Part shown: positions 2,010 to 50,652 of the stretch, one piece after another
Numbering within the stretch: the stretch's first letter is position 1
Layout: every line of letters begins with the position of its first letter
Assembly: GCA_965113315.1 (NCBI GenBank)
Contig: OZ220364.1
Strand: one strand, 5' to 3'
Source: Podarcis vaucheri
Taxonomy: Eukaryota
Length of the DNA: 64,000 nt
Position numbers and translations under genes: made by a program
The notes under the pieces: model-generated
The model's input: only the letters and a program-made list of their open reading frames with translations
The model's database searches: none
What the model was told of the DNA's origin: nothing

Positions 2010-2080
2010 TTACCAGACTGGAAGAGAGGGAAGCAGAACTGAAGAAAGAATACAATGCTCTTCATTCAAGACATACAGAG
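2010..2080 (+). CDS. SPAG9: SPAG9 exon (TRLEEREAELKKEYNALHSRHTE), RH1/LZI region
   Basis: tttttcag acceptor, GAG|gtaggt donor, 71 nt, phase 1 to 0. Confidence 0.93.
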
Positions 2081-10758: not shown

Positions 10759-10853
10759 ATGATTCATAATTACATGGAGCACTTGGAAAGAGCCAAACTT
10801 CATCAACTGACTGGGGGTGACCAGCTAGAACCCATCATGCACAGTAGAACTAG
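10759..10853 (+). CDS. SPAG9: SPAG9 exon (MIHNYMEHLERAKLHQLTGGDQLEPIMHSRT)
   Basis: aacag acceptor, AG|gtaagc donor, 95 nt, phase 0 to 2. Confidence 0.93.
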
Positions 10854-11149: not shown

Positions 11150-11589
11150 TTGAAATAATTGAATCGCGGTTGTCTGATGTGTACCTTCGGGCACATGTCT
11201 GTGAGAGGGCGTCTCTGGCGGAAGCCTTGTGACTACATTATGTAGATGTCGGAGCCTCCCATCCAATGAACTGGAGCTGAGCAGCCGAGGTTTGAAGTAG
11301 TGGGGAGGAGAAAGAGGCGATCAAGCTTGCTTGTATCTTTAGGTTGCTGCATAGATGCTGGGGAGAAGAGAAGCAGCTCCATGGTGGTTTTTTCTCCCGG
11401 TTAGGTGGGGGGGGAGAGTGAGGTGATGTCATTTTGCTTTGGAGCGGCTGCTGCGGAAGAGAGTGGAAAGCCGCTGCTGATGGCATTGTTTTTGTGGCAG
11501 CAAGTGAATGACAGACACTCACTACAAAGATACTCCCTTGTCCCCTGCGTAGCCTTGGTTCTTGCAATTCACCATGCCAGCGCAGCGCC
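11150..11589 (+). promoter_or_regulatory. Putative internal promoter / 5' UTR of short JIP4 isoform
   Basis: Local CpG/GC rise, CCAAT at 11263, TGATGTCA (CRE-like) at 11424, directly upstream of the alternative start ATG; TSS not determinable. Confidence 0.5.
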
Positions 11590-11750
11590 ATGAGTCCTGG
11601 ATGCATGCTGCTATTGGTGTTTGGCTTCGTTGGCGGGGCGGTGGTCATTAATTCAGCTATTTTAGTCTCTCTCTCTGTTTTGCTGCTTGTGCACTTTTCT
11701 ATATCCACTGGCGTGCCAGCTCTGACGCAGAACTTACCAAGGATTCTCAG
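11590..11750 (+). CDS. SPAG9: Alternative first coding exon, hydrophobic N-terminus MSPGCMLLLVFGFVGGAVVINSAILVSLSVLLLVHFSISTGVPALTQNLPRILR
   Basis: GCCATG start; CAG|gtaccc donor in phase 2, compatible with the exon at 15830; near-identical to the recalled mammalian short JIP4 N-terminus. Confidence 0.85.
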
Positions 11751-15829: not shown

Positions 15830-15983
15830 AAAGGAACCTCCCATATCATTGGGCATCTTCCCACTACCTCCAGGAGATGCACTTCTCACACCTGATAATC
15901 ACAGAGGAACAGTGGAAACTCCTGGGTCAGATAATTGGAAGTTCCGTGAACTAAGTCAGCCACGTTCCCGCACCAGTTTAAAG
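15830..15983 (+). CDS. SPAG9: SPAG9 exon (KEPPISLGIFPLPPGDALLTPD...SLK), JNK-binding region
   Basis: tcccagcag NAGNAG acceptor, AAG|gtgacc donor, 154 nt. Confidence 0.92.
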
Positions 15984-21575: not shown

Positions 21576-21765
21576 GATGAACTTTCTGATGTTAGCCAAG
21601 CAGGTTCCAAATGTACTACGCCAGTCTTAACTGCTGCTTCAGATGTCCTTGCGCCTGCTGAATCTCCCTCGAAAGACCACAAGGAAGGGCTTGAGAAGGA
21701 CTCCGATATAGGGAACAAGAACATTGAAGTGCAAGTAGCCCAAGAAACAAGAAATGTGTCTATTG
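21576..21765 (+). CDS. SPAG9: SPAG9 exon (DELSDVSQAGSK...QETRNVSI)
   Basis: tttag acceptor, G|gtaagt donor, 190 nt. Confidence 0.93.
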
Positions 21766-22454
21766 GTAAGTTCCTAGAATAGATTGTGTGGCTAGAGCCA
21801 ATACTATGCACACTTTAAAACTGAATTTTTTTTCTGTCTTACGTGTAAATATGTGTGCGTACTAATTTCCAGAAGAATAGTTATTGATTAATATTTAGAG
21901 GAACGGGTGATGTTCTTGATTAATATTTAGGAAACATGGTGTTCTTGTGTAATAAGGTGCAAGTATGTTTGGGTGTGGTTATCACACTAGGGTTGGGGAC
22001 AAAATTGTCCCCATGGCTTCCAAATCCATTGTATGGTCTATGAAGTATAAATATTCATACCTCCTTTATGTACTTAAATTAATAAAATGTACTTAGAATG
22101 AATTAATAAAATGTTAAAGATCTATAAACTGGAAAAAACTATTTCTTATATGGAAATGTGTTTTGTGCAGAAAGTGTCTTCTTTGTGAAGTCACCCTTGC
22201 AGTAAAAAATTACTGTAACATTTAAGGGGCAATGGAGTGGCCATTTAACTTGTTGGCAGTGTAATTTTATAGTTCAGATGTCGGTTCAGCCGTGAATCTC
22301 TCTGGTCTTTGGCAGTGCTTAATCTCATAATTTAGCCCTTGCTTCATTGGGGTTGCTGTGGAATTAAAATAAGATACATAGTAGTTCCCTTAAGCTCTTG
22401 GGATAGGATGAAAAAGAAATGGGAATAAATAGTTACTTCTGATCTGTTCCCCAG

Positions 22455-22554
22455 GTTCTAATGAAAATGAAGACAAATCTGAAGTTCAGGCAATCATCGA
22501 ATCCACTCCAGAGCTGGATATGGATAAAGACCTTAGTGGATATAAAGGTTCAAG
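22455..22554 (+). CDS. SPAG9: SPAG9 exon (SNENEDKSEVQAIIESTPELDMDKDLSGYKGS)
   Basis: cccag acceptor, AG|gtattt donor, 100 nt. Confidence 0.94.
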
Positions 22555-23063
22555 GTATTTTGCTGAACACTTCTCATCAGTAAAGATCTTCGGGTGGGGG
22601 AATGTACAGGGCAGGGTTCAGCTAAGTTGTTCATGCACTGGGCCTTTCCCCCCACCTCCTGTGCATCCCCATACCCCCTAGGCCTGCTCCGTATGACTGG
22701 GGAAACCCTCCAGAACAGGTTTAAGTGAAGGCGGGGGTGGGAGGAAGTCCCATTGCGCAGCAGACCTTGTTCCCTGCATGCATACTTAATGCTATGTTGA
22801 ATTCCACTTATAAGCTCCCAACAGTCTTGTTGGGCTGATGCCAGGACCCCAAAGGCCTATACGTGGCCCACGTTGCATAGGACGCTTGGGAATGTCTGAA
22901 GCAATACAGTTGTCCACTGTGCTGCTGCTCTGCTTTTGACTGCCTGTCCGCCCAGTGCAAAGGGTCCTGATCTGCCGAGAAGATCAGAGCAGTTTGTTAT
23001 GCAGCAGTCATTGTCCTTTTACTCAGGGTCTTCCAGAAGAGCTAAGAACAGTGTGTGTGAGAG

Positions 23064-23342
23064 CAGTAGCGAAGCTGCATGCTCTGCTACTGGGGGCAGA
23101 GAGCAGGCGGGGGTGTGGCTGGCGCCCCGGAGGGCGTGGCATGCTGTCCGCAGGGGTGTGGCACGCATCCTGAGGGTGTGGCTTGCGTTCTGGGGGCATG
23201 GTGTGCCACCTGTGGGGGCGTGGCGCCCGGCACGAGGGTGGGTGCGCGCCGCATGTCCGGGGAGGCCGCCATGATGGCACCCTGCTGGAATAGTGGTGCC
23301 AAGGGTGGTCTGCGCCCTCCGCACCCCGTTCCTCCGCCAGTG
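23064..23342. mobile_element. GC/CpG-rich MITE (hAT-like)
   Basis: Imperfect TIRs CAGTAGCGAAG...CTCCGCCAGTG, partial 8-bp TSD (..GAGAG). Confidence 0.55.
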
Positions 23343-23659
23343 CAAGAGAGTCTTGTGCTGCTTCTGATCTGCTTAAGTGCTCCAGAATGCAAGGGCAGAG
23401 GATTCTTGGAGTGAGAAGTTAAGGACCTCCTACTGGTGCCGTGGGGAGGTGGGCCAGAGGAAAGGAGTGAAAGCCAGACAAGTGGATGAGAGGAAGAGTA
23501 ACCCAGGTGACGAGCTGTGCATTTGGGGTAAAAGTGGGGAGGAAGCATTACCTTGACACATGTGCCTTATGCCTCTGCCCCATGACAGTTAAGGGCACCC
23601 ACTGGTAGGTTTCTGGCACATAATTCTAGAGCCACACCTGACTGTAATGCCTGACTTAT

Positions 23660-23800
23660 ATTGGCGGTTGCCAATGTGGCGCCCTCCAGATGCTGTTGGA
23701 CTACAACTCCCATCATCCTCAGTTGTTGGCTGTGCTAGCTGAGGGTTTATGGATGTTGTAGTCCAACAAAATCTGGAGGGCACCACATTGGCTACCACTG
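23660..23800. mobile_element. Palindromic hAT MITE (GGACTACAACTCCC family)
   Basis: Internal palindrome shared with 28799, 33838 and 34017. Confidence 0.7.
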
Positions 23801-23967
23801 CTTATTGCAGCATTAGCTTTTATGGGCTAGAACCCACATTGTCAGACGCATGAAGTGATTTAGAAGACCATGTGCCCGCACATATTGACACTCATTTGTG
23901 TGCGTACATTTACATATTTTAAAAACTTTTATTCCCCTGACTTTTAAATTCCAATTCTGTTGTGCAG

Positions 23968-24089
23968 CACACCTACCAAAGGCATAGAGAACAAAGCATT
24001 TGATCGTAATACAGAATCACTGTTCGAAGAACTATCTTCTGCTGGCACTGGTCTGATAGGGGATGTGGATGAAGGAGCAGACCTACTGG
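23968..24089 (+). CDS. SPAG9: SPAG9 exon ([24 protein letters not shown]...GADLL)
   Basis: gcag acceptor, G|gtaagt donor, 122 nt. Confidence 0.95.
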
Positions 24090-27000
24090 GTAAGTGGGTA
24101 TTCTCAAAAAATCCTGTTGATTTCCATCCATTTCTTCAGCTTAAGAACTGTGAAGGTAATTGTTCTGTGAGAGTTGAGGAATGAAGTTGTTGAGAAAAGT
24201 ATTCATGTTCAGTACTTCGTTTTAAGTAAGCTTCTTCTATATATAAAATGGTTACTAATTAAAAATGGTGAAGTTGAAAACATTCAGTCTCCTACATGAG
24301 GTTTTTACCAAAGGGAGTCTTTTGATTATTTATTCAGAACTCTGCTTTAGTGCAGTCCTAGGTTGCACTCAGAAGTAAGTTCCATTGAGTCCCTGATAGG
24401 TTTGGGTAAGGTTTCAGAGCAGGTGTAGCAGCTACTCACCAGGTGAGAAGGAAGTCATGTGACATGGGGAGGATATCTGAAACAGCGCCCAGAACCATCA
24501 GCCTGTACAATAATATGCAGAGGCACAAGACTACCTGAATAATGAAGTGAATCAAGCATTTGCTCTTGAGTTTTTAAGGACTGGTGAAATAACCAGTTTA
24601 ATTTGGTAAATAGCAAGCTGAAAATAGAGCCCTCATTGGCTGCTCCTGTCTCTTTTGGTCATCAGCATACAAGGGCAGGAGGGGGCCTCATTTCTGAAAT
24701 ACGGTCATCCTCCATTCTTTGATATGCAGAGGTCCCTCTCGATACCCTTTCTAACGACCCCCATCCAGATCCATTACAGCCTAGATGATTTTTCCAGATC
24801 GGAACTTCTCCACCAGCTATAGTTAAAGGAGATGAGCCCAGTTCCACAGTCAGTTCTGTTAAAGAATGTAAGACTATCCCCATTAGGAGGATTGCTAAAC
24901 CTACATAATAAATAAACCTAGCACTGCTCAAACTTTGTAGATTCCAATTTGATGCAAATCAAGGCCCAGTAGCAGTTTGGTGGGTTGGTTCTTGCAGGCT
25001 GTCAGCAGATGTCTTCTGCAGTGTCAAACATTGGCATCATATGGAATCAGTAAGCCAGATGCCTCTATAGCAGCCCTATACTCCGCTGTAAGAGGGGCAC
25101 ATTTTGTAATGTACACTATTTCCCCAAGCAGATTTTCTATTTTGGGTCACGAAGAAGACCAAAGAGGCCCATTTAAAAGGATCAGAAAAAGGCAAATGTT
25201 TGTAATTGCTAAATATTATTTTGGACTGTGAGCCTAAGATTCTAGCTAGCCATGGGCACAATAGAAGATGAAGGTTTGGTTACTGAGTGGAAAAACTCAA
25301 GCTGAATGGGATTCGCCTGCCCCTCTCTCTCCTGTGCTTCCAGAAAAGTCTCTAGAGGGTCAGTGGCCCCTTCTGAAGAGCATGCAATGAGGAGTGATGG
25401 GCTGCAGTGGGAAGAGGGAATCGCCCAAAATCAGCTGTAGGCCAAGTTTGCAAAATGTCATATTTGCAGAGCTACAAGCGAGACCTTGAATTCAGATTTA
25501 AATTCAGCAAATGGAATAGTAGTCTATAAGTACTCACAGAAGGAAACAATGTTGACAAGGGAGTGTTTCCAGCTGATCAGGAAGAAAAATAGACAGCTAC
25601 CCAGTTGTGTCGCATCTCTGGGATGGTTGCCATGACTTTGTGTGAAAATGTCAGAATTGTTCAGGTTAGCCAGAATCCTCACTTCCTTTTAGTGTACATG
25701 CCTGAACTGTGTAACCCAAGCACAAGCATTAAAGGGCCAGGTGGTTGAGCTCAACTGCCGTGCTCCCCCTGATAGAGCACATATGTGTGCCTTCTCCATA
25801 CCACACACTCCAGATTCTGTTGAGCAATTGAGGTAGGCCAATATCACTTGGCAACTGCGGCTAGTGGGATTGCTGTTTTGTCTGTTTCCCTATGGCGCAA
25901 CTTCATTTTTATGCTACAATGTCAGCACAGCATGGTATATGCCAGGCACTGCTGCAGTCATGGGAATGAAAATAAAGGTTTCAGTAGTAGTTCTGCTCTT
26001 TCTGGAGTTGAGCAGGAAACATGCCCTGGCATAGCCCAGGTGCCAGGATTTTTTTTTATTTTATTGGAAGGTAGTTACCCTAGTTACAAAACTCTGCATG
26101 TAGCCTCAGCTAGAATTATGCGTTTCAACAGATCTGCTGCAGATACTCAAGTACATTTTCTTCTCTTTGTGGTGGGCAATATAAATTTCATTCATCTATT
26201 TCAAACAGCATTTATGATTTGACTTTATTTAAAAATTAAAAAAGCATTACAAGTATTTGGCTTTCGAATAAGGGGGAGTCACATATGTAGCTTGGTGAAT
26301 AGCATCAGTCTTCTCCATTCGTTGTCCTCTGAAATTAAGTTGGCTGATTTGAATGAATATACGATGGACAGCATTAACTAGTGAAATGGAGAGTCTTGAC
26401 TCTACTGATGTCCTTTTAATGGGTTTATTAATGAGTTGCTTTTAAAGCTCTTGATGTCTGTTTTAAGAGAGGGTTGCAAAGACAACTCGCATAGCCCGGA
26501 TTAGGGATGAGGAACCTGCTACCCTCCTGATGTTGGTGGAGCACAGTTTCCATCACTCCTGACCTTTGGCCATCATGGCTGGATGGGAATAGAATCCAAC
26601 ATTTGAAGGGTAGGAGGATCCCAGACTTTAGCCTGGATCTTCTAGGATTTGAAGGGAAACGACTAAATGCGGCAGAATAATCCTAATGTGTTTATACAGA
26701 AGTCCTACTGAGTTCAGTGGGACCCAATTTGAAATAAGTGTACATTTTGTATGAAATGCCCTGTTTTGTAGCGTGATATGCAATATATCTGCTGTTTGAC
26801 TTATGGAGCATGGTTCCACAATGTTAGTTTACATGGGATTCTCCAATTTTCTTTCTCTTGGGCTGCATACCCAGGGGAATATTCTGGTGTGTATGCTTTT
26901 TATATTTTCAAAAGTGATTGTTTTGAAGTTCAATATTCTTGGCTGCTGCTATCATAATATATGTTGTTATTTTGGTTTTTATCCTGCTTGGTATCTTCCC

Positions 27001-27531
27001 CCCCCCCCCAACCATTTTGTTTGATAATCGTTTCTCTGTTAGGGACACCAGCAGTTAAAAGTGTAGTGCAAATAACTCAAGTCTATCTCTACGAACAGCA
27101 ATTTTTGAAATCCTCAAAAAACTCAAACTTCAGCCACTTTTGAAGAAAAGACCCATTATTTTCTACAGCTATAGGCAGATACTGGCCCTAGTTCTGTCTT
27201 GTGAAACCACCCAAACATGGAGAAGCAGTTGGAAATAAGAACAGGGTTTGAAGTATTTTGTATTCTCATTTTGTATCCTCCCTGGGGTCTGGGGATGAAG
27301 GGCAGTATAAACAAACCAACCAGCAAACCTTCTGAAACCATCATGACTGTTTGCTGATCACTGAGTACAGGGCCCCCTTCTTTTGTATTTAAAGCACAAG
27401 CACATGTCAAACGCATTGTAGGATGTAAATTGAAGAGCTGGCTAGTTGGAGGGCATGAAGAATGCATTGTGATGCTGCTATCCTGGCAGAATGAGGGCAG
27501 GGTTCCTTTCTCCTGTGCAGCAAGTGCAGTA

Positions 27532-27866
27532 CAGTGGTGCCTCACAAGACGAAAAGAATCCGTTCTGTGATTCTCTTCGTCTAGCGGTTTTTTTGTCTTG
27601 CGAAGCAAGCCCATTGAAGGATTAGCGGATTAGCGCTATTAGCGGCTTTTAGCGGCTTATCTGCTGATCGGATCAGCTGATAAGCGGCTTAGCCGCTTAG
27701 AAAAGGGGGGGGGAGGAAAAAAACCCAGCAGGAACTCGCAAGACATTGTCGTCTTGTGAAGCAAGCCCATAGGAAATTCGTTTTGCGAAGCACCTCCAAA
27801 ACGGAAAACTCTTTCGTCTAGCGAGTTTTCCATCTTGCGAGGCATTCGTCTTGCGGGGCACCACTG
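27532..27866. mobile_element. Tc1/mariner (Tigger/pogo-like) MITE
   Basis: TIRs CAGTGGTGCC..CAAGACGAA / TTCGTCTTG..GGCACCACTG, TA TSD. Confidence 0.85.
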
Positions 27867-27869
27867 TAC

Positions 27870-28038
27870 ATAGGAAGCTGCCTTATACTGATTCAGACCA
27901 CAGATCCACCTAGCTCGGCATTGGCAGCAGCTCCTCGGGGTTTCAGGCAGAGTTCTCTCCCATCCCTACCTGGAGATTGAACCTTCTTGAGACCTTCTGC
28001 GTGCAAAATAAGTGCTCTGCCATTGAGCTGCAGCCCCT
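27870..28038 (-). mobile_element. tRNA-derived SINE
   Basis: Reverse strand begins GGGGCTGCAGCTCAATGGCAGAGCAC (A-box) and ends AGGCAGCTTCCTAT; related copy at 33739-34178. Confidence 0.65.
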
Positions 28039-28798
28039 CTCCAACAGGGAGACTTCTTGCAGGTGGATTTTGATCTGTGCATCTGCGTCAGCACTGTGAG
28101 AGCGGCCACATAAAAGCGAGATACCTTGTTTCCTTGGCATCAGTCAGCATTCCATGTCCTTTAGAGAATATGATCCTTGTTTCTCAGAAGAGTACATTCA
28201 GTATGCTTAAGGAATCGAGGAGCAAGATATTGGCCTTGTTCCAGTGACTTCGTCCACTACTCCAGTGGGTGCACAGAGCTCCCCTCCTTGTGCAGGTACT
28301 TACCTGTTCATTTCAATAGAGTGGGCACTTTGTGGTGTAAATATATGGACTTGCCCTCCCTGCCTCCTGCCAGGTGAGCAGTGCAGCCCATTTGCTGCGG
28401 AGAAGCACTAAATTACTACGTGCTTATTCTGTTTGAGGAGTTGGTCTCATTTGCTCAGTTTTGCAAATACATGTGTAAATAGCAAATACGTTTCAACGCT
28501 ATACACATTTTAGCAGGGTCTTAATTTTCCTAGATTTGCCCAGAAACCTGTAACCTTTCATTGGCCTGTGTTCTAAGATTGATGTAAGAAGCGAAGGCCA
28601 GTTTAAACACCCAGGGTTTATTTATGGTGAGCCATCAAGAATGTAGCTATGACATTGCCACTTCCCCAAAATATTACTGGAATGTTATAACTTTATATAC
28701 CTTTCAGAGGTCTGAAATGTGTAGCTGTTGGTATATTATAAGCTGTAAAGGTCATCCCCATAATCCCCAGCTGCCAGTGTTTGTAACACCATTTATAC

Positions 28799-28934
28799 CA
28801 AGCATCCCCAAACTCAGCCCTCCAGCTGTTTTGGGACTACAATTCCCATCATCCCTGACCACTGGTCCTGTTAGCTAGGGATGATGGGAGTTGTAGTCCC
28901 AAAACAGCTGGAGGGCCGAGTTTCGGGATGCCTG
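28799..28934. mobile_element. Palindromic hAT MITE
   Basis: Near-perfect hairpin, perfect 8-bp TSD ATTTATAC. Confidence 0.88.
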
Positions 28935-29872
28935 ATTTATACCAACAAACCATGTACGGTCTCCACTGTCCCTTCCCCAAAAAGATACTGCAGTGATGGG
29001 AAAAGTGCGGAATAAGGCAACTAAAATGGTCAAGAACATTTTCTGCTTTGTGGAAACCCTTAAGCATTTGGGACTTTAGGAAAAGAAAAAGGGATGATGT
29101 GGGACAGGTAAATTATGTGTGGCTTGGAAAGACTAGATGGGTGGGTGTGTCCTTTTGGCTTTGCCTTGGGTTTATTAAGTTAAATTGGGCACTACCTTAT
29201 TTTCATATGTGTGTGTGTGAGTGTGTGTGTGTGAGTGTGTGTGTGTGTTCACACCCACCCACACCCACGCCTTCATCAAAAAGAACCAAGGAAAGTAATT
29301 CAAAGCGAACCAAAGAAAGAAGTGCGTGGCTGACATGCAACCCATAATTAACTGATTAAATTCCCTATTTTAAAATGTGGTGATGGCCATGGGCAGGGGG
29401 CTTCAAGAGGCAGTGGCAGGAGGTGGGGATTAGTCAGTCTTGAAGGGTGTACGTCTTTCTACAACCTCCCTGGCTAAATGGAAACCCTATTTTCAGCAGT
29501 GTTACCTTTCGGGATTTAGATTCCTGGGGACAAACTAAAGAAGAAAGGCTGTTGCTTTCATAGCCTCTTTACAGGTTTCTTGGAGGTTCCAATGTTAGAG
29601 ATGGGATGCCGGACTAGAGCAATGCTTGGTCCACTGAGGCTTCTCCTAGATCTTGACCATACTTTTTGACACTACTCTCTTTTAACTGTTTATGTCTTAC
29701 TATATGAGTCATTTTTAAATGAGAACATAATTTGGCTTCAGACGTTTACTGCTGGCTTTGCTTTGAAATCACTCACATCTCTAGTATTGTGCTGTACCTC
29801 ACTCATACTCCTCTCCTTACATGAAATATTTCTTCTTCTTCTTGCTCTTCATGGGATTCATGGGCTTTAAAG

Positions 29873-29887
29873 ACCTTAATTTCTTTG
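29873..29887 (+). CDS. SPAG9: Candidate 15-nt microexon (adds DLNFF)
   Basis: ttaaag|ACCTTAATTTCTTTG|gtaagg; phase 1-1, no stop; resembles the recalled JIP3 alternative insert (..DDFFG) at the same position. Confidence 0.7.
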
Positions 29888-30548
29888 GTAAGGTATCATC
29901 TCATTTGGGGAACATTTGCAAGGGCGTTGCATTGTCTTTGAGCTTTTTCATGTTCTGCATCTCTTCTCTGTGTTGTGACACGGCTTTCAGCATCAAATAT
30001 ACGTAATTTAAATTTGTAGTGTAAACTTTAATTGATTTTCAACACTTGTTTTAATACAATTTATTTTCTGCAAGAGCAGTTAAACATTGGATTCTTGGAC
30101 TGAAAATATTTTGCATTGTTCTTCTGGGCTTCAGAGAGCCTACCTGTTGAACACTTTAAAAGTCCAGCAAGATTTAGTTTTGAAAACTGTTGTTTTCAGC
30201 TATTAAGGAATCAGGTGCTTCGATAAACTCCAAGAACTATCCTACCTGCATAGGTTGTTCTTCCATTTTTATATTTTATTGACAGTTTGACAGGTGGCTT
30301 GAGAAGTAGTATGCAACACTATTAAATAAATGATTGAATACATTTCAGTGGAGGAAGCTAATCTGCGTGCAAGCAGTGCAGTTCCTTCCATTGAAATTAA
30401 TGTGGAGTCCCACTTACATAGTAGCCCCACATGAACCTCGGAGCAGCATACACTAAACTCTGTATCAGGGTGCATAAGTTTGAGAACTGGCACTTGCACT
30501 AGTAATTTCAATGTTTTTAAGCTGTTTACTCTGTTCTGTCTTTGCAAG

Positions 30549-30606
30549 GAATGGGTCGTGAAGTTGAAAACCTTATCTTAGAAAATACACAACTGCTAGA
30601 AACCAA
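30549..30606 (+). CDS. SPAG9: SPAG9 exon (MGREVENLILENTQLLET), start of LZII
   Basis: AAG acceptor, AA|gtgagt donor, 58 nt. Confidence 0.94.
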
Positions 30607-30823
30607 GTGAGTAACTTTTTCAGCTGTTGAACATAGAATTTCTTCTGCTAAACTTGTTTTAAAATTGATCATGAGACTGGTTGCTGGTTCATAAAGGATA
30701 TAATCAATTATTCCCAAGGCCCTTGTTCCATATATCCACGTGACAGATGTAGGTTAGTTGATGCTTTAGGTGTTTGCACTATTCTGATCTCTAATGGTTA
30801 ATATAATTAATATAATAGGCTGT

Positions 30824-30955
30824 CTAGTCATGCTGGCCACATGACCCAGAAAGCTGTCTCTGGACAATCGCCAGCTTCCTCGGCCTAAAGTGCCGCAGCC
30901 CCATAGTCTTCTTTGGCTGGACTTAACCATCCGGAGGTCCTTTACCTTTTACCTT
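30824..30955 (+). mobile_element. 5'-truncated Sauria SINE
   Basis: GTCATGCTGGCCACATGACC...CCTTTACCTTTTACCTT tail. Confidence 0.75.
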
Positions 30956-31113
30956 ACATATTCCTTTAGTTCATGAAAGGTACAAAATTACAAAACGCAC
31001 AGGGAATGTCAGAACACTAGAGCTTGGGTTTCTTAAGTGTAGCTGACCATCAATAGCTTCAGGACAATCAGAAACAACTCTCCCTCATTCACTAATTTGT
31101 TTGTTCCCAAGAG

Positions 31114-31244
31114 CAGTGCTTTTTTTTCTTTAAAAATATTTAGGGGTGCTCTCATTTTCCTACTTGAAATACTGCCCCTCAATGAGGCCAAACTTAGATT
31201 CACAAAATGTTTATGGGTATGCGTACCCCCAGGAAAAAGCACTG
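31114..31244. mobile_element. hAT MITE
   Basis: TIRs CAGTGCTTTTT/AAAAAGCACTG, TSD CCCAAGAG/TCCAAGAG. Confidence 0.8.
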
Positions 31245-31482
31245 TCCAAGAGGATCTGTTTAGATGTTGCAGAGCTAGACTAGTTTAGGCGGGGCTAACG
31301 TTTTTGGGGCACAGGGTTCACCAACCCTCTGGGGCCACACGCAGTTGTGGACATGGCCAAAAGAGGGCGTGGCCACTCAGCACTCTCACATGTGCGCAGA
31401 CACCCACAGGCATACTGCCCCCCCCCCCAGGTGTACAGATCAGATAAGGAGGTGGGTTATTGCCGAGTACTGTGTTCACTTA

Positions 31483-31744
31483 CCCGTATTTTTCGCCCTA
31501 TAAGACGCACCAGACTATAAGACGCAACTAGTTTTTGGAGGAGGAAAACAAGAAAAAAAAATATATTCTGAATCTCAGAAGCCAGAACAACAAGAGGAAT
31601 TGCTGCAGCGCAAGCAGCGGTCCCTTTTGCTATTCTGGCTTCTGGGATAGCTGCACAGCCTGCATTCGCTCCATAAGACGCACACACATTTCCCCTTACT
31701 TTTTAGGAGGAAAAAAGTGAGTCTTATAGAGCAAAAAAATACGG
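31483..31744. mobile_element. Tc2-like mariner MITE
   Basis: TIRs CCGTATTTTT..CTATAAGAC / GTCTTATAG..AAAAATACGG, TA flanks. Confidence 0.8.
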
Positions 31745-32229
31745 TAATCATTTTTGCTGCTGTCAAATTTAGAGGGGTCCTGGGGGGCAATATTAGACAC
31801 CCCCCAAATTGAGGGTTAGACAACCCTGAGCTAGTCCAATATGGCATATTATACTATTTGCCGAATAAAAACAAATGTTGCAAACTAAGTTTTGTGCAAG
31901 CTATTGAAACTACTGCTGTGAATAGAAACGGGACACAAAATATGAATCTGGGGCAGCCAGTGCCAACTTAATGCTGTGGCAATTGTTCCATCAGGGCAAA
32001 CATTTCAGCTGGCCAGATGTGGTGATGCACCCTCCCCATACTGCTCTGGGGATTCTCCTTGTGGAAGTTGTAGTGCAGGCTTCCGCTAGTGGGACTCATT
32101 AGTTTCATACTGCCCAAAGCTATTTTTGTAAGTGGGGGGAGGGGTATAACTCTTTGTCGCTTGAATTCCTATGATAGGATTGAAATAACGGTCGTAAAAA
32201 TAAATAGATCAATTTCTGTGATACTGGTA

Positions 32230-32582
32230 AAGATAAAGGAACCTCTGATCATTAAGTCCAGTCGTGACCGACTCTGGGGTTGCGGCGCTCATCTCGCTTT
32301 ATTGGCCGAGGGAGCCGGCGTACAGCTTCCAGGTCATGTGGCCAGCATGATGAAGCCGCTTCTGGCGAACCAGAGCAGCACACGGAAACACTGTTTACCT
32401 TCCCGCCGGAGCAGTACCTATTTATCTACTTGCACTTTGACGTGCTTTCGAACTGCTAGGTGGGCAGGATCAGGGACTGAGCAACAGGAGCTCACCCCGT
32501 TGCGGGGATTCGAACTGCCGACCTTCTGATCAGCAAGTCCTAGGCTCTGTCGTTTAACCCACAGTGCCACCCGCGTCCCTCA
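32230..32582 (-). mobile_element. Sauria SINE
   Basis: Full length; 13-bp TSD TGTGATACTGGTA at 32217 and 32583. Confidence 0.9.
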
Positions 32583-32632
32583 TGTGATACTGGTAGAAAT
32601 GACCTAATTACAGCTATCTTTGTTGTCTTCAG

Positions 32633-32785
32633 AAATGCCTTGAATGTGGTGAAGAATGACTTAATAGCAAAAGTAGATGAGCTCACCTGCGAGAAGGATG
32701 TGCTGAAAGGAGAGCTGGAAGCTGTAAAACTGGCCAAACAAAAGCTTGAAGAGAAGAACAAGGAATTGGAAGAAGAACTTAGAAA
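32633..32785 (+). CDS. SPAG9: SPAG9 exon ([21 protein letters not shown]...EEELR), LZII
   Basis: ttcag acceptor, AA|gtgagt donor, 153 nt. Confidence 0.95.
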
Positions 32786-32878
32786 GTGAGTGTAATACGC
32801 ATGTTTCATGTACAGCAGAGAAGATCTTACCAGGGATTCTGCAACTAACTTCACTGATAACTCTTGCATCTTGTTTAG

Positions 32879-32930
32879 AGCCCGTGCGGAAGCAGAAGAA
32901 GCGAGGCAAAAAGCAAAGGAAGACGATGAT
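32879..32930 (+). CDS. SPAG9: SPAG9 exon (ARAEAEEARQKAKEDDD)
   Basis: tttag acceptor after a 93-nt intron, GAT|gtatgt donor, 52 nt. Confidence 0.93.
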
Positions 32931-33323
32931 GTATGTAATTGTATTGGCAGCTTTTTATCTAATCCTGTTTCTTATTTGTGTAACATTGCTCTTAAAATAC
33001 CCTGACCTTTTGAAAGAGTTTTTGAGAAGAAGTGTGCACTTGTCCTTTCTTTATCTGCTGCAACTCCTCTTGCAGTTGTAGAGTGGACTATGACATCTGG
33101 GGGATGCTGAATTAGTCTGCTTCCTCCACCCCACTCCTCCTTTGGACACCAAGGGTCTGTGAGGGGCTGCTTCCATTGTTGGCACTGTCTCTTCCCGCCC
33201 ATTACTGCACTTTATATATAGCTATAAACACCTGTAAATTATTTCGAAACGACTGGTCTTAGGCCCTTAGCGCAGTTCATTGGTGATGGAAGAGAAAGTA
33301 ACTCCTCCTTAAACTGTACATAA

Positions 33324-33527
<204 letters not shown>

Positions 33528-33561
33528 TAGTATTTGACGGTTATGGTTGCAATGCTGGATA

Positions 33562-33563
<2 letters not shown>

Positions 33564-33593
<30 letters not shown>
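33564..33593. repeat. (CT)n microsatellite, followed by a CR1 3' end (about 33600-33660)
   Basis: Direct reading. Confidence 0.85.
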
Positions 33594-33598
<5 letters not shown>

Positions 33599-33837
33599 AT
33601 TGCAGTGGGTTGGACTAAATAATCCTTTGGTCCCTTCCAACTGTACCAATCTGTGATTTTGTGAAACTGCTGCTATTATTGTATTGCATTGTGGAGAGTA
33701 GATTATTTTTAACAGTAAAAGGGGGCAGGGCCATCAAAGGGGAAGGGCTGTAGCCCTTCTACATACTTCGCATGTAGAACATCCCAGGTTAACTTCCCAA
33801 GTAGGGCTGAGAGAGAGTCCTGCCTGAAAGCCTAGAG

Positions 33838-33975
33838 CAGCGGTTCTCAACCTGTGGGTCCCCAGATGATGTTGGACTACAACTCCCACCATCCCTGAGC
33901 TCTGGCCTTGCTAGCTAGGGGTGATGGGAGTTGTAGTTCAACAACATCTGGGGACCCACAGGTTGAGAAAGGCTG
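33838..33975. mobile_element. Palindromic hAT MITE
   Basis: TIR ..TTCTCAACCTGTGGGTCCCCAGATG; TSD GCCTAGAG/CTCTAGAG. Confidence 0.85.
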
Positions 33976-34016
33976 CTCTAGAGAGTTGCTGCCAGTCAGG
34001 GCAGAAAATAATGAGC

Positions 34017-34152
34017 CAATGTTTCTCAAGCTTGTGTGTCCAGCTGTTGTTGGACTACAACTCGTATCATCCCTGACTTCTGGTCCTGCTAGCTAGAGAT
34101 GATGGCAGTTGTAGTCTGGCAACAGCCGGGGAACCAGGTTTGAGAAACACTG
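34017..34152. mobile_element. Palindromic hAT MITE
   Basis: CAATGTTTCTCAA...TTGAGAAACACTG termini, same internal hairpin family. Confidence 0.8.
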
Positions 34153-35173
34153 AGCTAGATGGACCAGGCAGCTTCCTACCCTCCCCACCCATTGCTTAGC
34201 TCTTGGCATTCCCCCCCCCCACCCAAAAGCTGGGCACACATTTAGTATCATATCTCTGAATAAAGAGATGGTGCTTGGCAGACAGACCCCAAGGAGATGA
34301 TCTGCAGCAGTAGGAGGGGCGTAGTGCACCTCTCACTTTGAACTTCTTCCCTAGGCACTCCTGTACTTTTAACATCTCATTTGACTGCCACCTAATGGTT
34401 GGATGTGATTGCTACAGTTTAGTTTTACTACGGAAAGATATTTAGACCTCTTTGTGACTAAGTTGACTTGTTTTGCATGAGCCACTTTCTACCATGGAGC
34501 AGTCCCCATATTCCTTGCACATGCAGCTTTTGCAGCCATAATGCTTGGTACTTCCTCTTCTGAAATTATTTTGTACACTTGGCTGTTTGGAACTGCTTTC
34601 CTAATGCATGCATGAGGTGGACAAAACCGTCATTGAGCAGTGGATGATCTTGTCAGGAACTTAACCTGTAAAATCAGCAGTGAACAAAAAAACAGATTGA
34701 AAAGCGCTTGATGCCCTTACACTGTTTACCCTTCACCAGATAGACTTCATCAGATATATGTGTGTGTGTTATACCCTTCACCAGATATATGTTTGTGTGT
34801 TTTTAGGGGATGAGCGGTCAAAATAGTAACTTGAATTTTTAGAATATGCAGATACTAATTTTGTTGAACAGTAATCTAACTTCATGTACAACTAAACCCA
34901 GAACAGGTTTAGAGGGCATGTGGCAGATACACAGGAAGAAGAATGGAAATGTCTTTCTGCTCAAACAGGCCTTGTTCTGCAGACACATGCCCCACTTAGC
35001 ACTATGTTAAATTGCACCCTGTTTATTCAGCAATCCCTCCCCACCCACCTCATCAATTTAATAGTATTGTATCTTGCAATCAGACAAGAGCCGTTTGCTA
35101 CTTTGATGTGTTGTGCAGAGCATTCTAGGTCATCCTATTGCTCAGCTAATTAGCTTTTGATTTTTTTCTTCAG

Positions 35174-35230
35174 GGCATCACGAGAAAATCCAGCCATGCA
35201 AGAGAAGAAGAGATCAAGCCTTTGGCAGTT
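35174..35230 (+). CDS. SPAG9: SPAG9 exon (ASRENPAMQEKKRSSLWQ)
   Basis: ttcag acceptor, TT|gtaagt donor, 57 nt. Confidence 0.94.
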
Positions 35231-35340
35231 GTAAGTACTGAAACGCAATCAGATGCTGGTATTATGCACAAAAGCCTTTTTTGTTTCTTTACTGCGCAAG
35301 GAACCAATAACAACAAACCTATTTTCTCTTTGCCGTCTAG

Positions 35341-35352
35341 AATGCCAACTGG
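35341..35352 (+). CDS. SPAG9: Candidate 12-nt microexon (WQFFSRL becomes WQLMPTGFSRL)
   Basis: ttttctctttgccgtctag|AATGCCAACTGG|gtaaga; phase 2-2; UGC just upstream of the AG; similar to a recalled mammalian VPTR insert isoform. Confidence 0.78.
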
Positions 35353-36808
35353 GTAAGACTGACCTTAAAGACAGATTGTAAGATGCATCTTGCAATGTTG
35401 GTTATGCACTTGGCCGAGAAACATAACTGCCTTAATCTAATTGTGGCATTAAAAAGAAGAAACCAGAATTCTAACACAAGAGTGCAGAGTTTTGTTAGCA
35501 GCTGTTCTATGAATATGAAAGTAAACTGAAGTTTGGGTAGCTTTTGGTGTGGTTTGCATATAATTTCAAGTACCCCAGAACTTGGTGTGAGAATTTGTGA
35601 AGTGCTAATTTATGTTCCTTGTTCTAAACGTAATTACTGAAGCCAAATGTGAGAGAGTACTAAAATTGTGAGAGATTAATTATTGTGTGATTAAATATTA
35701 AAATATTGTGTATCCCAGAAGTTATTTTATTTAATACTTTTTGGGGGTTTTAAGATTTAATAGAAATCTTTGGGCTCCTGTCTAAAGAGTAGTGAATCTG
35801 CAGGACTTGGCTGTGAAGGTGCTGGATTCTTGTGGGACTGTGTTTCTTTTACCTTTATTGTAGTTCATATTCTGAACTGAAACCAATCTTGTCCATCCCT
35901 ACCTTTTGCTGTGGGGAAACAGAATAGTACATTGAAGTTATGGATCCTCTATATCTGGACTCATAGTCTGGTAGTCTAGTAAACTTGCACTCGGTGGCAT
36001 ACACATGATATACACAATGATATTTAGGTTATATGAAATGCTTTGGGCAAACCATCTGCAATCCTTACAACAATCTTGTAGGCTATGCCAGATTTATCTC
36101 CCTGTTATAAATAATGGTGAGATGGAGGCAGCATCCTGCCTAAGGAACATTTACCAAGCTCCATGATGAGTTGTGTGACTTATGGAGCAAAGCTCATGCT
36201 TTTAATCACTATGGCACATCAGCTCAGATAATGATCAAACTGCTTGTGTGCCTATAAATTTTGGGGAAACTATACTGTTTATCAATGCTTCAGAGCCTGA
36301 ATTACTGAGTGGGGTTGCCTATGGTGGCCTTAACTATCTCGGGTCTAGAAATTTGCTATACAGATAGAGAAGCATTTCAGATTTTCAGGTGGAGGAGTCC
36401 AGCCCACCCTGTGACCTCAGAATGAAGGGCAGGCAATAAAAAGATGGAAATTAAAGTAAATACATGAAAATAAAAATAGGAACCAGCATCACTTTTTTTT
36501 GGTACCAGCCCTGTATTTTATAGAAAGCTGTTTTTAACACCACCAGAGCATTCTCTAGCCCCTGCATAAATGCCAAGTCTTTATCTTCATTCTTGGCTTG
36601 AATGTGCATGGAATAGTTATTATGAGTGTTGCAAACGTAATGCTGCTGTTCTGATGGTGTGAGCTGTGTGGGACAGTTAATGGCTGCTGTGTTTGGGCCC
36701 ATTCTTTTCTTACTACGTTTCCTTACTCATTGCTGTCCATTTGATGCCAGTTTGGCTTTTGGGTGTGTCTGTGTACTCACATGCCTCTACTTTTTTTGTG
36801 GTCTCCAG

Positions 36809-36982
36809 TTTTAGCAGACTATTCAGCTCATCAGGCAATACTGCTAAGAAACCAGAACCGCCAGTTAATGTTAAGTACAATGCTCCAACCTCCCACATTA
36901 CTCCATCAGTCAAGAAAAGAAGCAGCACTTTATCCCAGTTACCCAGTGACAAATCAAAAGCCTTCGATTTCCTCAGTGAAGA
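36809..36982 (+). CDS. SPAG9: SPAG9 exon (FSRLFSSSGNTAKKPEPP...FDFLSE)
   Basis: tccag acceptor, GA|gtaaga donor, 174 nt. Confidence 0.94.
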
Positions 36983-38222
36983 GTAAGACTTGCTTTGCTT
37001 ATACAAACTAAAAGTATGCCAGCAATATAGAATTATTTGAATATATCAGCAAGGCCAGCATGTATTGTAGTAGAAATATCAAAACCAGGGTTCAGGTTGA
37101 TCAAACCTTGAAGTATTGGAATAACAGATAGTAGCTGTTGGATTTTTATGGACAAAAAGAAGACTGTGTGCTTAAATGTGGTAGCCTCTGTTGCATAACA
37201 GTTACAACAATTTATTCAACTTATTATGCTTGGGGGCTGCATAACTAGTTAGCCTGCCATGCCAGAATCTTGCTTGTTCTCAGAAATATCCTCGCCCATA
37301 TTTATCTAGTTATCTGGTCCAAACATGGAATTAAGCAGTACCCTTGTCCGTTTTGATACTTCTGTGTAAAATAACCCATGATATCCACACAGCACACACT
37401 AATGTGGCATGTTGCCTTTGGGGAGGGGTATACCTTAAGTATAATGCCCTTTACTGTCTTACTTGAACTAATGTAACTTGTGCTTAAAATCCCTCAGTGC
37501 CTTTCAGCACTGTTTTTCGTTTCCTCAACAGTTTTTCCATTCACAGTGCTCAGTTTGTATGTTTTGCCCAGGTAGAGCTTTTGTTAATTGTGTTTGCAAA
37601 GTTAGCATGAATCAGAGGAGCCCAGAAGCGCATGTCACCAGTGCTCTGATGTATCTGTGGCTGGCTCCTCCTGGCACAGTGAAAGGTGCTATAATCTATG
37701 CAGCACTAAATGGTGTAGGACCAGAGCAGTTCAGGGACAGTCTCCTCCCATGGTACCCCATTAGGAACCCTATGATCTTATTAGACCAAATGAGCCAAGA
37801 GAGAACTGAACTGGGACATTTGAAAAGTTTGCCAGGATATGCACAACCTCCTAACAACTTTTGGAACTGCAAAAAAGTAGCCCAGCTTGGTTTGGGCAAA
37901 TATTTCAGCAAGCAAAGGAATGTGGTTGTGGAGTGAAGTGGGGGGGGGGGGAGGAATAACAGAAGTCTGAATCAGCATTGTCAAGTCCTCATCAAATAAA
38001 AGTGTTGTTGTCCTCTCTTCAGAGGTTGGTGGAAGGCATCCTGGGTTTCCAGGTATAACCAGAAGCCTCTTAAGGCTGTTAGTGTGAGAGATGAAGGGGT
38101 GGAATGGAAAATCCTCTCCATGATTAGAATTCCCAAATCCTCAGGTCATATGGCCTGATTGTTACATTAGAGAACCCGCTTTGGGTGGAATACAGAATAT
38201 GGGTAATTTAAAAAGACCTTCA

Positions 38223-38479
38223 CAGATCGTGAAGCTGAGGCTCCAGTACTTTGGCCACCTCATGAAAAGAGAAGACTCCCTGGAAAAGACCCTGATGTTG
38301 GGAAAGATGGAGGGCACAAGGAGAAGGGGACGACAGAGGACAAGATGGTTAGATAGTGTCTTCGAAGCTACCAGCATGAGTGTGACCAAACTGCAGGAGG
38401 CAGTGGAAGACAGAAGTGCCTGGCGTGCTCTGGTCCATGGGGTCACCAAGAGTTGGACACGACTAAATGACTAAACAAC
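38223..38479 (+). mobile_element. BovB (RTE) LINE 3' end
   Basis: Peptide KLRLQYFGHLMKREDSLEKTLMLGKMEGTRRRGRQRTRWLD; (CAA)-type tail; TSD AAAAAGACCTTCA at 38210 and 38480. Confidence 0.9.
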
Positions 38480-38848
38480 AAAAAGACCTTCAAATTACAG
38501 CTTTCCACCATACCAGTTTGGTCGCAGCGTCAGACGTTGCTTCCCCCTCTTTATCCAAATATGTTACCAGATGCAGACTTCAGCAGCAGGCCGTGCCAGA
38601 GAGCCATGCTGCCCTAAAAACCTTAGAAGTATTGTGCTGACAGTTTCTCACTGAGAGAAAAAAACAAGTGCCTTGAAAGAAGTAAAGCGTCCAGGGAGTA
38701 ATACAGATTTCACTTGCGTATTAACTTTGAATAACCTCTTCTGCCACTTCCTACATAACTTTGAAAAGTTTTATTTTGGGCTAATGGGGATTGGAAGGTA
38801 TAGAGGAGCTTGGAATAAAAAAAAAATGTGTCCCTCCCTTTTGCCAAG

Positions 38849-38978
38849 GTCTGAGGCCAGTCTTGCCTCACGTAGAGAGCAGAAGAGAGAACAGTACCGC
38901 CAAGTGAAAGCCCATGTTCAGAAGGAAGACGGTAGAGTGCAAGCTTTTGGTTGGAGCCTTCCTCAGAAATATAAACAG
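38849..38978 (+). CDS. SPAG9: SPAG9 exon ([43 protein letters not shown])
   Basis: AAG acceptor, CAG|gtattg donor, 130 nt. Confidence 0.94.
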
Positions 38979-39167
38979 GTATTGTGTTCATCCCTGTTCA
39001 TGTGTTTTAGTTTGGGGATATTGTGGTGGCAGGTCACTGAAGGCATTTTCATTTTCAGCAAGGTGGGAAACCTGTAACCCTCCAGATTCCATCAACCTCA
39101 GCCAAAACATGGAGCTATTTAAATACCTGTGCAGAGATTATCATGCCTACAAATTGCCATATAGAAT

Positions 39168-39380
39168 TATTATTATTATTAATTAAATTTCTATACCATA
39201 CTTCATCTGAGGATCACAGGACAGTTTACAGTATAAAAACGCAAAAATGCATACTATAGAAAGGAAGAAAAATAACACACACACACCAGTTTTAAAGGCC
39301 ATAGATTGTTTAATTAGCCAAAGGCCTGGGAGAAGAGGAATGTTTTTGCCTGATGCCTAAATACATGTAATGAAGGCACC
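39168..39380 (-). mobile_element. L2-like 3' end
   Basis: Reverse-complement similarity to 3725-3920; (ATT)n tail. Confidence 0.6.
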
Positions 39381-40238
39381 ACACAAGAATAATACCTTGA
39401 CAAAGCTAAAGCAAAATTGACAATTAAAAACAGCAAGTTTGGGGCACTTTAAAGACTAGCAACTTTATTGTGGCACACACTTTTGTGGGTGACAATAATG
39501 TTAAGAGTGGCCATTCATAAAAATTAAAAAGATGTTAAAAACACAGGCATCCTGGTATTGGTAAGCCAAGTAACAAGTGTAGCGTGATAAAAATCATTTA
39601 TCTCCACAAGTTTATCAACTTGAACCTCTCATCAATTTCACATTGCAGTCTTCCTTTAAAACCAAGTATTACACAAAGCCTCCTTACAGCTCCACAGAAA
39701 ACTAAAGCATCCTTGAAAGGGTTAGAAAGGATTTTAAAAAGCCTAGCAAAATGAAGGCAGGATTAACATAGTGCAGGTATGGGACTGAGCAAAGCAGTTT
39801 AGCCCTGCATTTTGAAATTACAGGGCTGCTGCTGAAAGGAGACCTAAAACAAGGAAACTCTAAGCAGGGTCCCATCTGAACTCAGGAACCTGCATGTTGC
39901 ACAAAGGATTTCTGGTTAATAGTTGAAGGCAATTCCTTTGTGGTAATCACAAAGCGTTGGTGATCTGTGGAGCTATCATGTTTACTTGTAAAACATGTAA
40001 AACATGAAACTTTCTTAATCCTTCTTAGTAAAAGGCAGAATTTTCCCATTTAAACACAAATGCTGCTGTTCAGAAAGAACAACTAGCAATAAAAGGTCAC
40101 TGAGCTGTGGGAAGAGTGGGATGGCTTTGTGTTCAAACCTCTTTGTAATGGAATGTTGTTACTGCACATTTTTCTGAAGTTTGAGAACATGTGTGCTACC
40201 TTGCATATTTTTATGGGAAATGTTTCAAGGTCTTAAAC

Positions 40239-40559
40239 CATGGGTAGGCAAACTAAGGCCTGGGGGCCGGATCCGGCCCAATCACCTTCTAGATCCGGCC
40301 TGTGGACGGTCCAGGAATCAGCATGTTTTTATATGAGTAGAATGGGACCTTTTATTTAAAATGCATCTCTGGGTTATTTGAGGGGCCTGCCTGGTGTTTT
40401 TACATGAGTAGAATGTGTGCTTTGTTTAAAATGCATCTCTGGATTATTTGTGGGGCATAGGAATTCGTTCATTCCCCCCCAAAAAAAAATATAGTCCACC
40501 CCCACAAGGTCTGAGGGGCAGTGGACTGGCCCCCTGCTGAAAAAGTTTGCTGACCCCTG
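40239..40559. mobile_element. hAT-Charlie MITE, OC1/OposCharlie1-like
   Basis: TIRs CATGGGTAGGCAAACT / AGTTTGCTGACCCCTG; perfect TSD TCTTAAAC; internal tandem duplication. Confidence 0.85.
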
Positions 40560-40919
40560 TCTTAAACTATGATCTGCATAGATAAGTATAGCTTTAACCC
40601 CATCCCAGTCTTTGTGCATAAGGCTTTGTTTATTTTACACTCGTCCCCCCCACTCTTTTTATATTAGCTGCTGAGAAGGGCCTCTTAGCTAATCTGGCAA
40701 GATAGACTTTTAAAATTACAATACTGCCCCCCTCTGGCTTTGATCTCACTAGTGTATGACTTTAAAATGAGTGGATCTATGATTGTTCTTCCCAGACAGT
40801 CTAATATTCTGGTCATCTAAGCAAACCTATCAAATTCTGACATGGGCTTGTGACAAACTGGTCTGTAAGATGCCAGAAACGTTTTGAAGCAAAGCAAATA
40901 TTTCTTTCTCACTTTTTAG

Positions 40920-41015
40920 GTTGTAAATGGTGGTGGCCAGGGGGATAACAAAATGAAGAACTTACCTGTGCCTGTTTACCTAAGGCCACTTGATGAAAAG
41001 GATACATCCATGAAG
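40920..41015 (+). CDS. SPAG9: SPAG9 exon ([32 protein letters not shown])
   Basis: tttag acceptor, AAG|gtacac donor, 96 nt. Confidence 0.94.
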
Positions 41016-41341
41016 GTACACCTGTCTTCCTTTTTCTCCAGTTCCTATTTTCAAATAAAGAATGCCCCATTAGTGATTTTTAGATGAGGCCTAATTCAGC
41101 ACGAGCAAGTTATATCCTTTTTAGGTTCTGAGCAACGCCTAGTTTAATTTAAATTGCAGGTGCTTAATAAATACTTTTGAGAAACTCTGGTTTTTAAATA
41201 TTGTCATATTGTTATTTCCCTAAAAGCATAATGTATGATAGGGTACAAACAAATGTTTGCTGTCTTTTTACGTCTTATAAAAAGACATGAGAACCAGGTT
41301 TTCCCAGTGGGTTTTTATAAAGTTCACTTGTTGTTTTGTAG

Positions 41342-41509
41342 CTTTGGTGTGCTGTAGGAGTTAATTTATCGGGAGGGAAGACAAGAGATGGCGGTTCAGT
41401 GGTTGGTGCCAGTGTGTTCTACAACGATGTGACGACTCTAGATGCAGAGAGCAACAAACAGAGGAGTGCATCACAGAGTAGCTTGGATAGATTAGATCAA
41501 GAACTCAAG
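41342..41509 (+). CDS. SPAG9: SPAG9 exon (LWCAVGVNLSGGKTRDGG...LDQELK)
   Basis: gtag acceptor, AAG|gtaagg donor, 168 nt. Confidence 0.95.
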
Positions 41510-42251: not shown

Positions 42252-42504
42252 GGAGGAGGAGGAGGAGGAGGAGTTTGGATTTGATATCCCGCTTTATCAC
42301 TACCCGAAGGAGTCTCAAAGCGGCTAACATTCTCCTTTCCCTTCCTCCCTCACAACAAACACTCTGTGAGGTGAGTGGGGCTGAGAGACTTCAGAGAAGT
42401 GTGACTAGCCCAAGGTCACCCAGCAGCTGCATGTGGAGGAGCGGAGATGCGAACCCGGTTCCCCAGATTACGAGACTACCGCTCTTAACCACTACACCAC
42501 ACTG
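42252..42504 (-). mobile_element. tRNA-derived CORE/MIR-like SINE (Squam3-like)
   Basis: Reverse strand CCAGTGTGGTGTAGTGGTTAAGAGC A-box and GGTTCGCATC B-box; (CTC)n tail. Confidence 0.75.

Positions 42505-43598: not shown

Positions 43599-43599
<1 letters not shown>

Positions 43600-43641
<42 letters not shown>
43600..43641. repeat. (AAT)n microsatellite
   Basis: Direct reading. Confidence 0.95.
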
Positions 43642-43642
<1 letters not shown>

Positions 43643-48728: not shown

Positions 48729-48730
48729 AT

Positions 48731-48768
<38 letters not shown>

Positions 48769-50445: not shown

Positions 50446-50652
<207 letters not shown>

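Follow-up and report, generated by a model that had tools for sequence, protein, structure and literature searches.

An alternative SPAG9/JIP4 exon predicted to exchange the motor-binding head for a conserved membrane anchor

As judged from its sequence, an alternative exon of SPAG9 in the lizard Podarcis vaucheri would provide JIP4 with a conserved hydrophobic N-terminus in place of the RH1-LZI head, and the resulting isoform is fairly likely to be a membrane-anchored, motor-activation-deficient fixed platform holding Rab, ARF, kinesin-light-chain and MAPK partners. The exon itself is real and ancient but not new, since many genomes carry an annotation of the isoform. Within the consulted parts of the freely accessible SPAG9/JIP4 full-text literature, no functional study of the N-terminus of this isoform was found.

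The alternative exon and its place in the gene

In the window, i.e., the whole stretch of 64,000 nucleotides analysed (contig OZ220364.1), tblastn with four named lizard proteins places exons of SPAG9/JIP4 between about 2010 and 57990 (+ strand); the RH1-coding exons lie upstream of the window. Assignment to JIP4 is based on this match exon by exon and on the LZII region of the isoform protein P0030, which scores 111.7 bits on JIP4 against 88.2 on JIP3. The features considered are as follows:

2010..2080, + strand: canonical 71-nt exon (LZI coiled coil), missing from the alternative isoform
10759..10853, + strand: canonical 95-nt exon, replaced by the alternative exon at the splice to 15830
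11553..11589, + strand: segment 5' of the ATG, after the in-frame acceptor TAG 11550-11552; contains the out-of-frame ATG 11574
11590..11750, + strand: alternative (probably first) SPAG9/JIP4 exon, coding part; 53 codons plus 2 nt, phase-2 donor
11605..11706, + strand: hydrophobic core of 34 uncharged, Pro-free residues (6-39), predicted to act as a membrane anchor
11707..11750, + strand: variable linker, residues 40-54, in which R51 and R54 provide the positive charge on the C side
15830..15983, + strand: first shared exon, opening with the MAPK docking-like motif R/KEPPISLGIF; NAGNAG acceptor
21576..57990, + strand: other shared SPAG9 exons (LZII, RH2, WD40 region), retained in the isoform

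The coding part of the alternative exon is 161 nt long and extends from ATG 11590 (context GCGCC-ATG-A) to the donor CAG/GTACCC at 11750/11751. Once joined to the acceptor CCCAGCAG/A at 15829/15830, its frame runs without stop through the 154-nt exon 15830-15983, codon 54 (Arg) of the exon peptide being split by the junction; if left unspliced, the same frame ends after 91 residues. An earlier sequence-only reading of this DNA had proposed 54 codons and a phase-2 donor in frame with 15830, which holds with the refinement to 53 codons plus 2 nt. The exon is located about 740 nt into the intron following the 95-nt exon 10759-10853; the two exons have the same phase at their donors (2) and the same acceptor (15830). 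The exchange of the RH1-LZI head claimed by that reading is likewise borne out, with the alternative exon substituting for about 196 upstream residues (RH1 plus LZI) and the Pfam domain of RH1 (PF09744) gone from isoform P0030 but present in the RH1-bearing protein P0048.

The 54-residue query matched 159 proteins among 302 candidates (at least 120 of them listed, 98 of those named), and 72 named matches among those listed, about one per species, were aligned, unnamed proteins and most redundant isoforms being left out. As many as 67 of these 72 models run directly into the docking-motif exon and 66 begin at the Met of ATG 11590. Together with an in-frame stop 5' of the ATG (11509-11511) and a slightly raised CpG o/e around the exon (0.45 vs 0.28), the latter figure bears indirectly on whether the exon has its own start, and the exon is accordingly a probable first exon. 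Alternatively, 11553-11750 could also, or mainly, be an internal 198-nt cassette spliced after the 95-nt exon by use of the in-frame acceptor at 11553, in which case a full-length JIP4 with RH1-LZI and an internal hairpin would constitute an anchored motor adaptor. The pyrimidine tract of the TAG acceptor (0.82) matches those of most other acceptors in the gene for richness, no stop interrupts the joined frame, and position 11553 is used by two lizard “hypothetical protein” models (P0046, P0048). Such a cassette nonetheless appears very improbable considering the large majority of models beginning at Met, the inconsistent positions at which the remaining fused models join, and the 13 added residues, which vary more than the core does and have no counterpart in fish.

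Around the shared acceptor, a tandem NAGNAG (CAGCAG) occupies 15824-15829, where use of the upstream AG would add one codon; “S-R-K-E” forms are seen in Paramormyrops and Myxocyprinus models. Four Sceloporus RefSeq isoforms exhibit 13 extra residues between the exon and the docking motif, no counterpart of which was found in the window intron 11751-15829. Repeat scans gave nothing notable. Elsewhere in the window, the longest frame is a 275-codon stop-free stretch on the + strand (51199-52023) that encloses a match to a SPAG9 exon (about 51610-51876), and an assembly gap of 200 N (62129-62328) lies 3' of the last coding exon.

A hydrophobic N-terminus and its predicted membrane insertion

The exon peptide is devoid of charge over 50 residues, the first charged residue being R51, and its 34-residue core (mean Kyte-Doolittle hydropathy of residues 6-39, 2.2) carries G12xxxG16 and a central N21-S22. 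The uncharged hydrophobic run previously sized at about 30 residues is thus present with other dimensions, namely 50 for the charge-free run and 34 for the core. As a control for chance, the first 54 residues of each of the 142 ATG-started frames of at least 50 aa on both strands of the window were compared: the frame of ATG 11590 had the highest 34-residue hydrophobicity (2.31, the runner-up reaching 1.67) and was the sole one with a 50-residue charge-free run. In all 37 species with near-full-length proteins, the core comprises 33-34 residues with zero charge and zero proline, and it is followed by a C-flank carrying a net charge of +1 to +3, against 0 (32 species) or +1 (five species) on the N side; as such, an isoform-specific N-terminal hydrophobic segment followed by a positive C-flank, the hallmark sought for a first-exon signal-anchor, was found in 37 of 37. 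The 54-residue peptide had no match in Pfam, PDB or the ESM Atlas.

AlphaFold modelling of the exon peptide from 38 sequences returned one confident straight helix of 37 residues (residues 3-39; pLDDT of the first 30 residues, 90-98), which in this model exceeds the length needed to span a bilayer. The full-length model of P0030 (pLDDT 36) is not usable, and the break it displays in the helix at 13-21, at pLDDT 31-39, does not count as evidence; the homodimer prediction for the 54-residue peptide (score 0.05) is uninformative for or against pairing. From these properties, the isoform is probably an integral-membrane JIP4. The earlier claim of a membrane anchor stands as regards the anchor-like character of the peptide, i.e., its 34-residue uncharged core, insertion itself being a sequence-based expectation.

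According to the positive-inside rule, a positively charged flank stays cytosolic, and the positive charges on the C side would accordingly hold the JIP4 body in the cytosol. As for topology, two arrangements come close to an even choice, namely (i) a helical hairpin turning at N21-S22 with both ends cytosolic, towards which the balance tips slightly, and (ii) one long tilted helix with its N-terminus out. The 34-residue run with N21-S22 in its centre fits the hairpin, Asn being a strong turn former, and the toleration of G4R in frogs and salmon was counted in the same direction, whereas the straight confident model and the shortness of 34 residues for two spans were counted against it. That a central turn residue in a long hydrophobic run leads to a hairpin is described in the consulted parts of two papers (PMC8657811, PMC2628428). 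The small residues show no preference for one face of the helix (p 0.84-0.98); G12xxxG16 and the invariant N21 could drive helix packing, and C5 could be acylated if cytosolic.

Instead of inserting in a membrane, the helix might bind a soluble partner or JIP4 itself, or be a cleaved signal, or a degron shortening the lifetime of the isoform. Interfaces are typically conserved to a very high degree, and S39-T40-G41 looks like a signal-peptidase site, for which the -3/-1 rule applies. Still, the 34 uncharged residues with their high mean hydropathy (2.2) present no amphipathic face, the positive N-region is missing in 32 of the 37 species, and secretion would leave a cytosolic scaffold in the lumen; this set of alternatives is considered improbable compared with membrane anchoring.

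Regarding the membrane of destination, the comparison is with plectin 1b, which receives from its alternative first exon a signal-anchor with a net positive C-flank that puts a cytosolic cytoskeletal linker in an organelle membrane, in this instance mitochondria, through a transmembrane segment of 23 residues and mean hydropathy 1.49 (part of PMC2426950). Because the JIP4 core exceeds this mitochondrial anchor in both length (34 residues) and hydrophobicity (2.2), entry into the ER is suggested for the isoform.

Conservation and the level of selection

The 72 models aligned from the matches listed are proteins of mammals, birds, crocodilians, turtles, lizards, frogs, sturgeon, teleosts, a ray and sharks, with 85-91% identity over the exon peptide in the cartilaginous fishes; on this sequence evidence, the exon is at least as old as the jawed vertebrates. 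Near-invariance from lizard to mammal had been put forward beforehand and, considering the sharks and rays, was understated, while the nearly identical N-terminus ascribed there to a mammalian short JIP4 could be located in chimpanzee, marmot, dog, goat and opossum-relative proteins (98% match). Over residues 1-35, mean identity amounts to 98.0% (36 species against Sceloporus in the 37-species set), compared with 80.7% for the linker, 87.2% for LZII and 94.2% for WD40, so that among non-overlapping windows this segment is the second most conserved of the protein, with only RH2 (99.9%) higher. When changes were counted by parsimony, with the protein body providing the tree, the 34 core sites had 11 and the 15 linker sites 34 (p=7e-10), i.e., a seven-fold rise in the rate of change within the exon where the hydrophobic core ends; among body windows, 22 of 1092 are as quiet as the core. 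A phmmer search against 1.84 billion representatives yielded 21 matches, all at least 78% identical and none between 1e-10 and 1e-3, which is weak evidence that the peptide has no JIP3 or invertebrate counterpart, weak for full-length paralogues because full-length isoforms hide behind cluster representatives. The sole match labelled “JIP3” among those listed, the Bagarius protein P0101, is JIP4 by sequence.

Selection on the exon peptide at the protein level is favoured because conservation falls within the exon where the core ends and because the changes are conservative. Distinct core substitutions are conservative in 9 of 10 cases where single-base changes predict 53% (p about 0.02), and small or polar columns changed in 0 of 12 cases versus 8 of 22 for large hydrophobic columns (p=0.03), these values relating to 10 hand-listed events in similarity-selected matches, with an assumed transition weight and several tests run. 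The sequence-only reading had offered either a selected product or an overlapping constraint on the nucleotides; the former gains from the strong conservation, the conservative changes and the boundary at the core end, to the level of favoured, and the latter is weakened, without losing all probability.

Indeed, conservation might operate mainly on DNA or RNA (promoter, enhancer, splicing or uORF), with the hydrophobicity of the peptide as a by-product or the protein scarce and unimportant. In keeping with this, the in-frame reading of the 13 codons 5' of the ATG agrees with two lizards at 12 and 10 of the 13 residues and with a rodent at 8, upstream ORFs overlap ATG 11590, and the invariance is greater than a generic anchor requires. 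Nevertheless, the upstream segment is unalignable in teleosts, where the core is still 92-100% identical, and both the seven-fold rate jump inside the exon and the conservative nature of the substitutions speak against it; besides, no RNA structure signal was detected in the exon region (z=0.03) and Rfam returned 0 matches at E<=1. As the main cause of conservation, a constraint of this type is deemed unlikely in comparison with protein-level selection. Some nucleotide-level constraint around the start is likely, though, because the upstream codons are kept in amniotes and ATG 11574 overlaps the start.

This out-of-frame ATG 11574 has a good context (CACCATGC) and opens a 25-codon frame (11574-11651) overlapping the main start, which may limit translation from ATG 11590; at the protein level, the “SPC” reading spanning it is also present in two lizards and a rodent. 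A second upstream frame (11426-11593, with ATGs at 11426 and 11480) terminates on a TGA overlapping the main ATG (ATGA), and this may be a simple consequence of the Met-Ser codons. On the minus strand, the longest stop-free frame (190 codons, 11238-11810) has wobble positions in common with the sense frame; as a functional 190-aa frame it was rejected, since the part over the exon stays open in 57% of synonymous recodings and the upstream length is attained in about 10% of shuffles, which is compatible with chance.

Retained partner sites, proposed function and related proteins

The regions downstream of the swap are all retained in the isoform, namely the MAPK docking-like motif, LZII (PF16471, at 247-317 of P0030), RH2, the Phafin2-binding region and the WD40 region. 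The isoform matches JIP3 204-569 including the RH2 helix, and residues about 343-377 are what we take to be RH2. Directly after the linker, R/KEPPISLGIF aligns to JIP3 RKERPTSLNVF and is presumably a JNK site; R51 and R54 of the linker reconstitute the basic cluster before it. This motif fits, by its sequence, the D-site pattern, i.e., a basic cluster then hydrophobic-X-hydrophobic (part of PMC2928751). In the full-length model, the approximately 190 residues between the anchor and LZII have no confident structure, and as modelled this spacer is long enough for a tether.

The motor binding ascribed to the lost head agrees with the consulted parts of PMC9284427, PMC6831827 and PMC13499124, in which RH1 binds the dynein light intermediate chain and the kinesin heavy chain (PMC9284427, PMC13499124) and LZI corresponds to JIP4 residues 67-182 (PMC6831827). 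From similarly partial sources, LZII partners are kinesin light chain, p150 and ARF6 (PMC6831827), and the Phafin2 binding region of JIP4 is 566-767 (PMC8325962). The product had been viewed as a JNK/p38 scaffold; while retention of the docking-like motif agrees with that view, it is too narrow, because the retained LZII, RH2, Phafin2-binding and WD40 regions indicate membrane traffic.

Under the preferred reading, (i) an alternative promoter within the intron that follows the 95-nt exon would give a SPAG9 transcript with an anchor-coding first exon, (ii) the anchor would replace the RH1-LZI head of about 196 residues, and (iii) the 34-residue uncharged core would insert in a membrane, most likely the ER during synthesis, with the JIP4 body cytosolic. 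Without RH1, (iv) the protein would bind neither dynein light intermediate chain nor kinesin heavy chain and would not be a motor-activating adaptor, (v) still offering the docking-like motif, LZII (for kinesin light chain, p150 and ARF6), RH2 (for phospho-Rab) and the Phafin2 and WD40 regions. Rather than being recruited and transporting cargo, (vi) it would be a permanently anchored platform or tether keeping JIP4 partners and MAPKs at one membrane. The helix would furthermore pack against a specific intramembrane target, i.e., itself, its other half or a partner, instead of being a generic anchor, as suggested by a near-invariance that extends to all small and polar positions; conservation of an anchor close to that of RH2 would imply a specific intramembrane partner.

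Studies of JIP4 treat it as a soluble adaptor that TMEM55B, phospho-Rab10, ARF6 and Phafin2 recruit to lysosomes and endosomes. A membrane-integral JIP4 lacking the site for dynein and kinesin heavy chain would act otherwise, as a tether, a brake or a local MAPK platform. Shared-exon knockouts and human truncating variants hit both forms, and rescues with long cDNA restore one only. A more specific and rather unlikely elaboration is that a hairpin-anchored JIP4 embedded in the ER, kept for >400 million years in jawed vertebrates and deficient in motor activation, captures lysosomes or endosomes marked by phospho-Rab10, ARF6 or Phafin2 in trans at ER contacts, there loading kinesin light chain or braking transport, and would represent an overlooked LRRK2-pathway tether. 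Were this true, shared-exon knockouts would remove the tether along with the long form, and rescues with the long isoform would miss it. Protrudin/ZFYVE27 and spastin M1 are anchored in the ER by a hairpin and engage kinesin-1, endosomes or microtubules, and spastin exists as anchored and soluble N-terminal isoforms; their sequences are unrelated to the JIP4 exon and they serve as a working analogy only.

An anchor encoded by a first exon on a cytosolic linker is a design already known from plectin 1b and dystonin-a2. In plectin 1b, as far as the consulted part of PMC2426950 describes it, the anchor is added to an intact protein, whereas the JIP4 exon removes the motor-binding domain; no sequence relation was seen between the plectin 1b anchor and the JIP4 exon peptide. 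In dystonin-a2, an isoform-specific N-terminal transmembrane domain directs a cytoskeletal linker to ER and perinuclear membranes (part of PMC3279385); this protein, whose function has been tested, is a spectraplakin and not an RH1/RH2 adaptor.

Reported SPAG9 products comprise JLP (1307 aa), the p38-selective JIP4 (1142 aa) and SPAG9 (766 aa) (parts of PMC5341948, PMC2211295), the 1142-aa JIP4 of Kelkar et al. (2005) being likewise, in the consulted text, an N-terminally different SPAG9 product without the JLP N-terminus. An in-frame ATG opens the 95-nt exon at 10759, and a product started there would have the length of the literature JIP4 (1307-165=1142), the corresponding Met being residue 165 in a teleost. 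The swap at 11590 predicts about 1164 or 1178 aa, the same lengths occurring among the matches listed, and for this reason the isoform is probably not the classic 1142-aa JIP4; if it were, p38 data and localisation would already exist. A SPAG9 poison exon (part of PMC11632617) appears to lie elsewhere, its forward primer resembling, by eye, a more upstream canonical exon. The annotated short SPAG9/JIP4 isoforms (1164-1191 aa class, NCBI/UniRef) possess the same exon, at 98% over 54 residues in mammals, turtles and lizards, and nothing structural differs in the lizard of the window, which has L9 in the exon peptide, as in three other models, and KEPP in the docking-like motif (15836-15838), as in Sceloporus and Phrynocephalus, the usual form being KERP and that of sharks REPPR.
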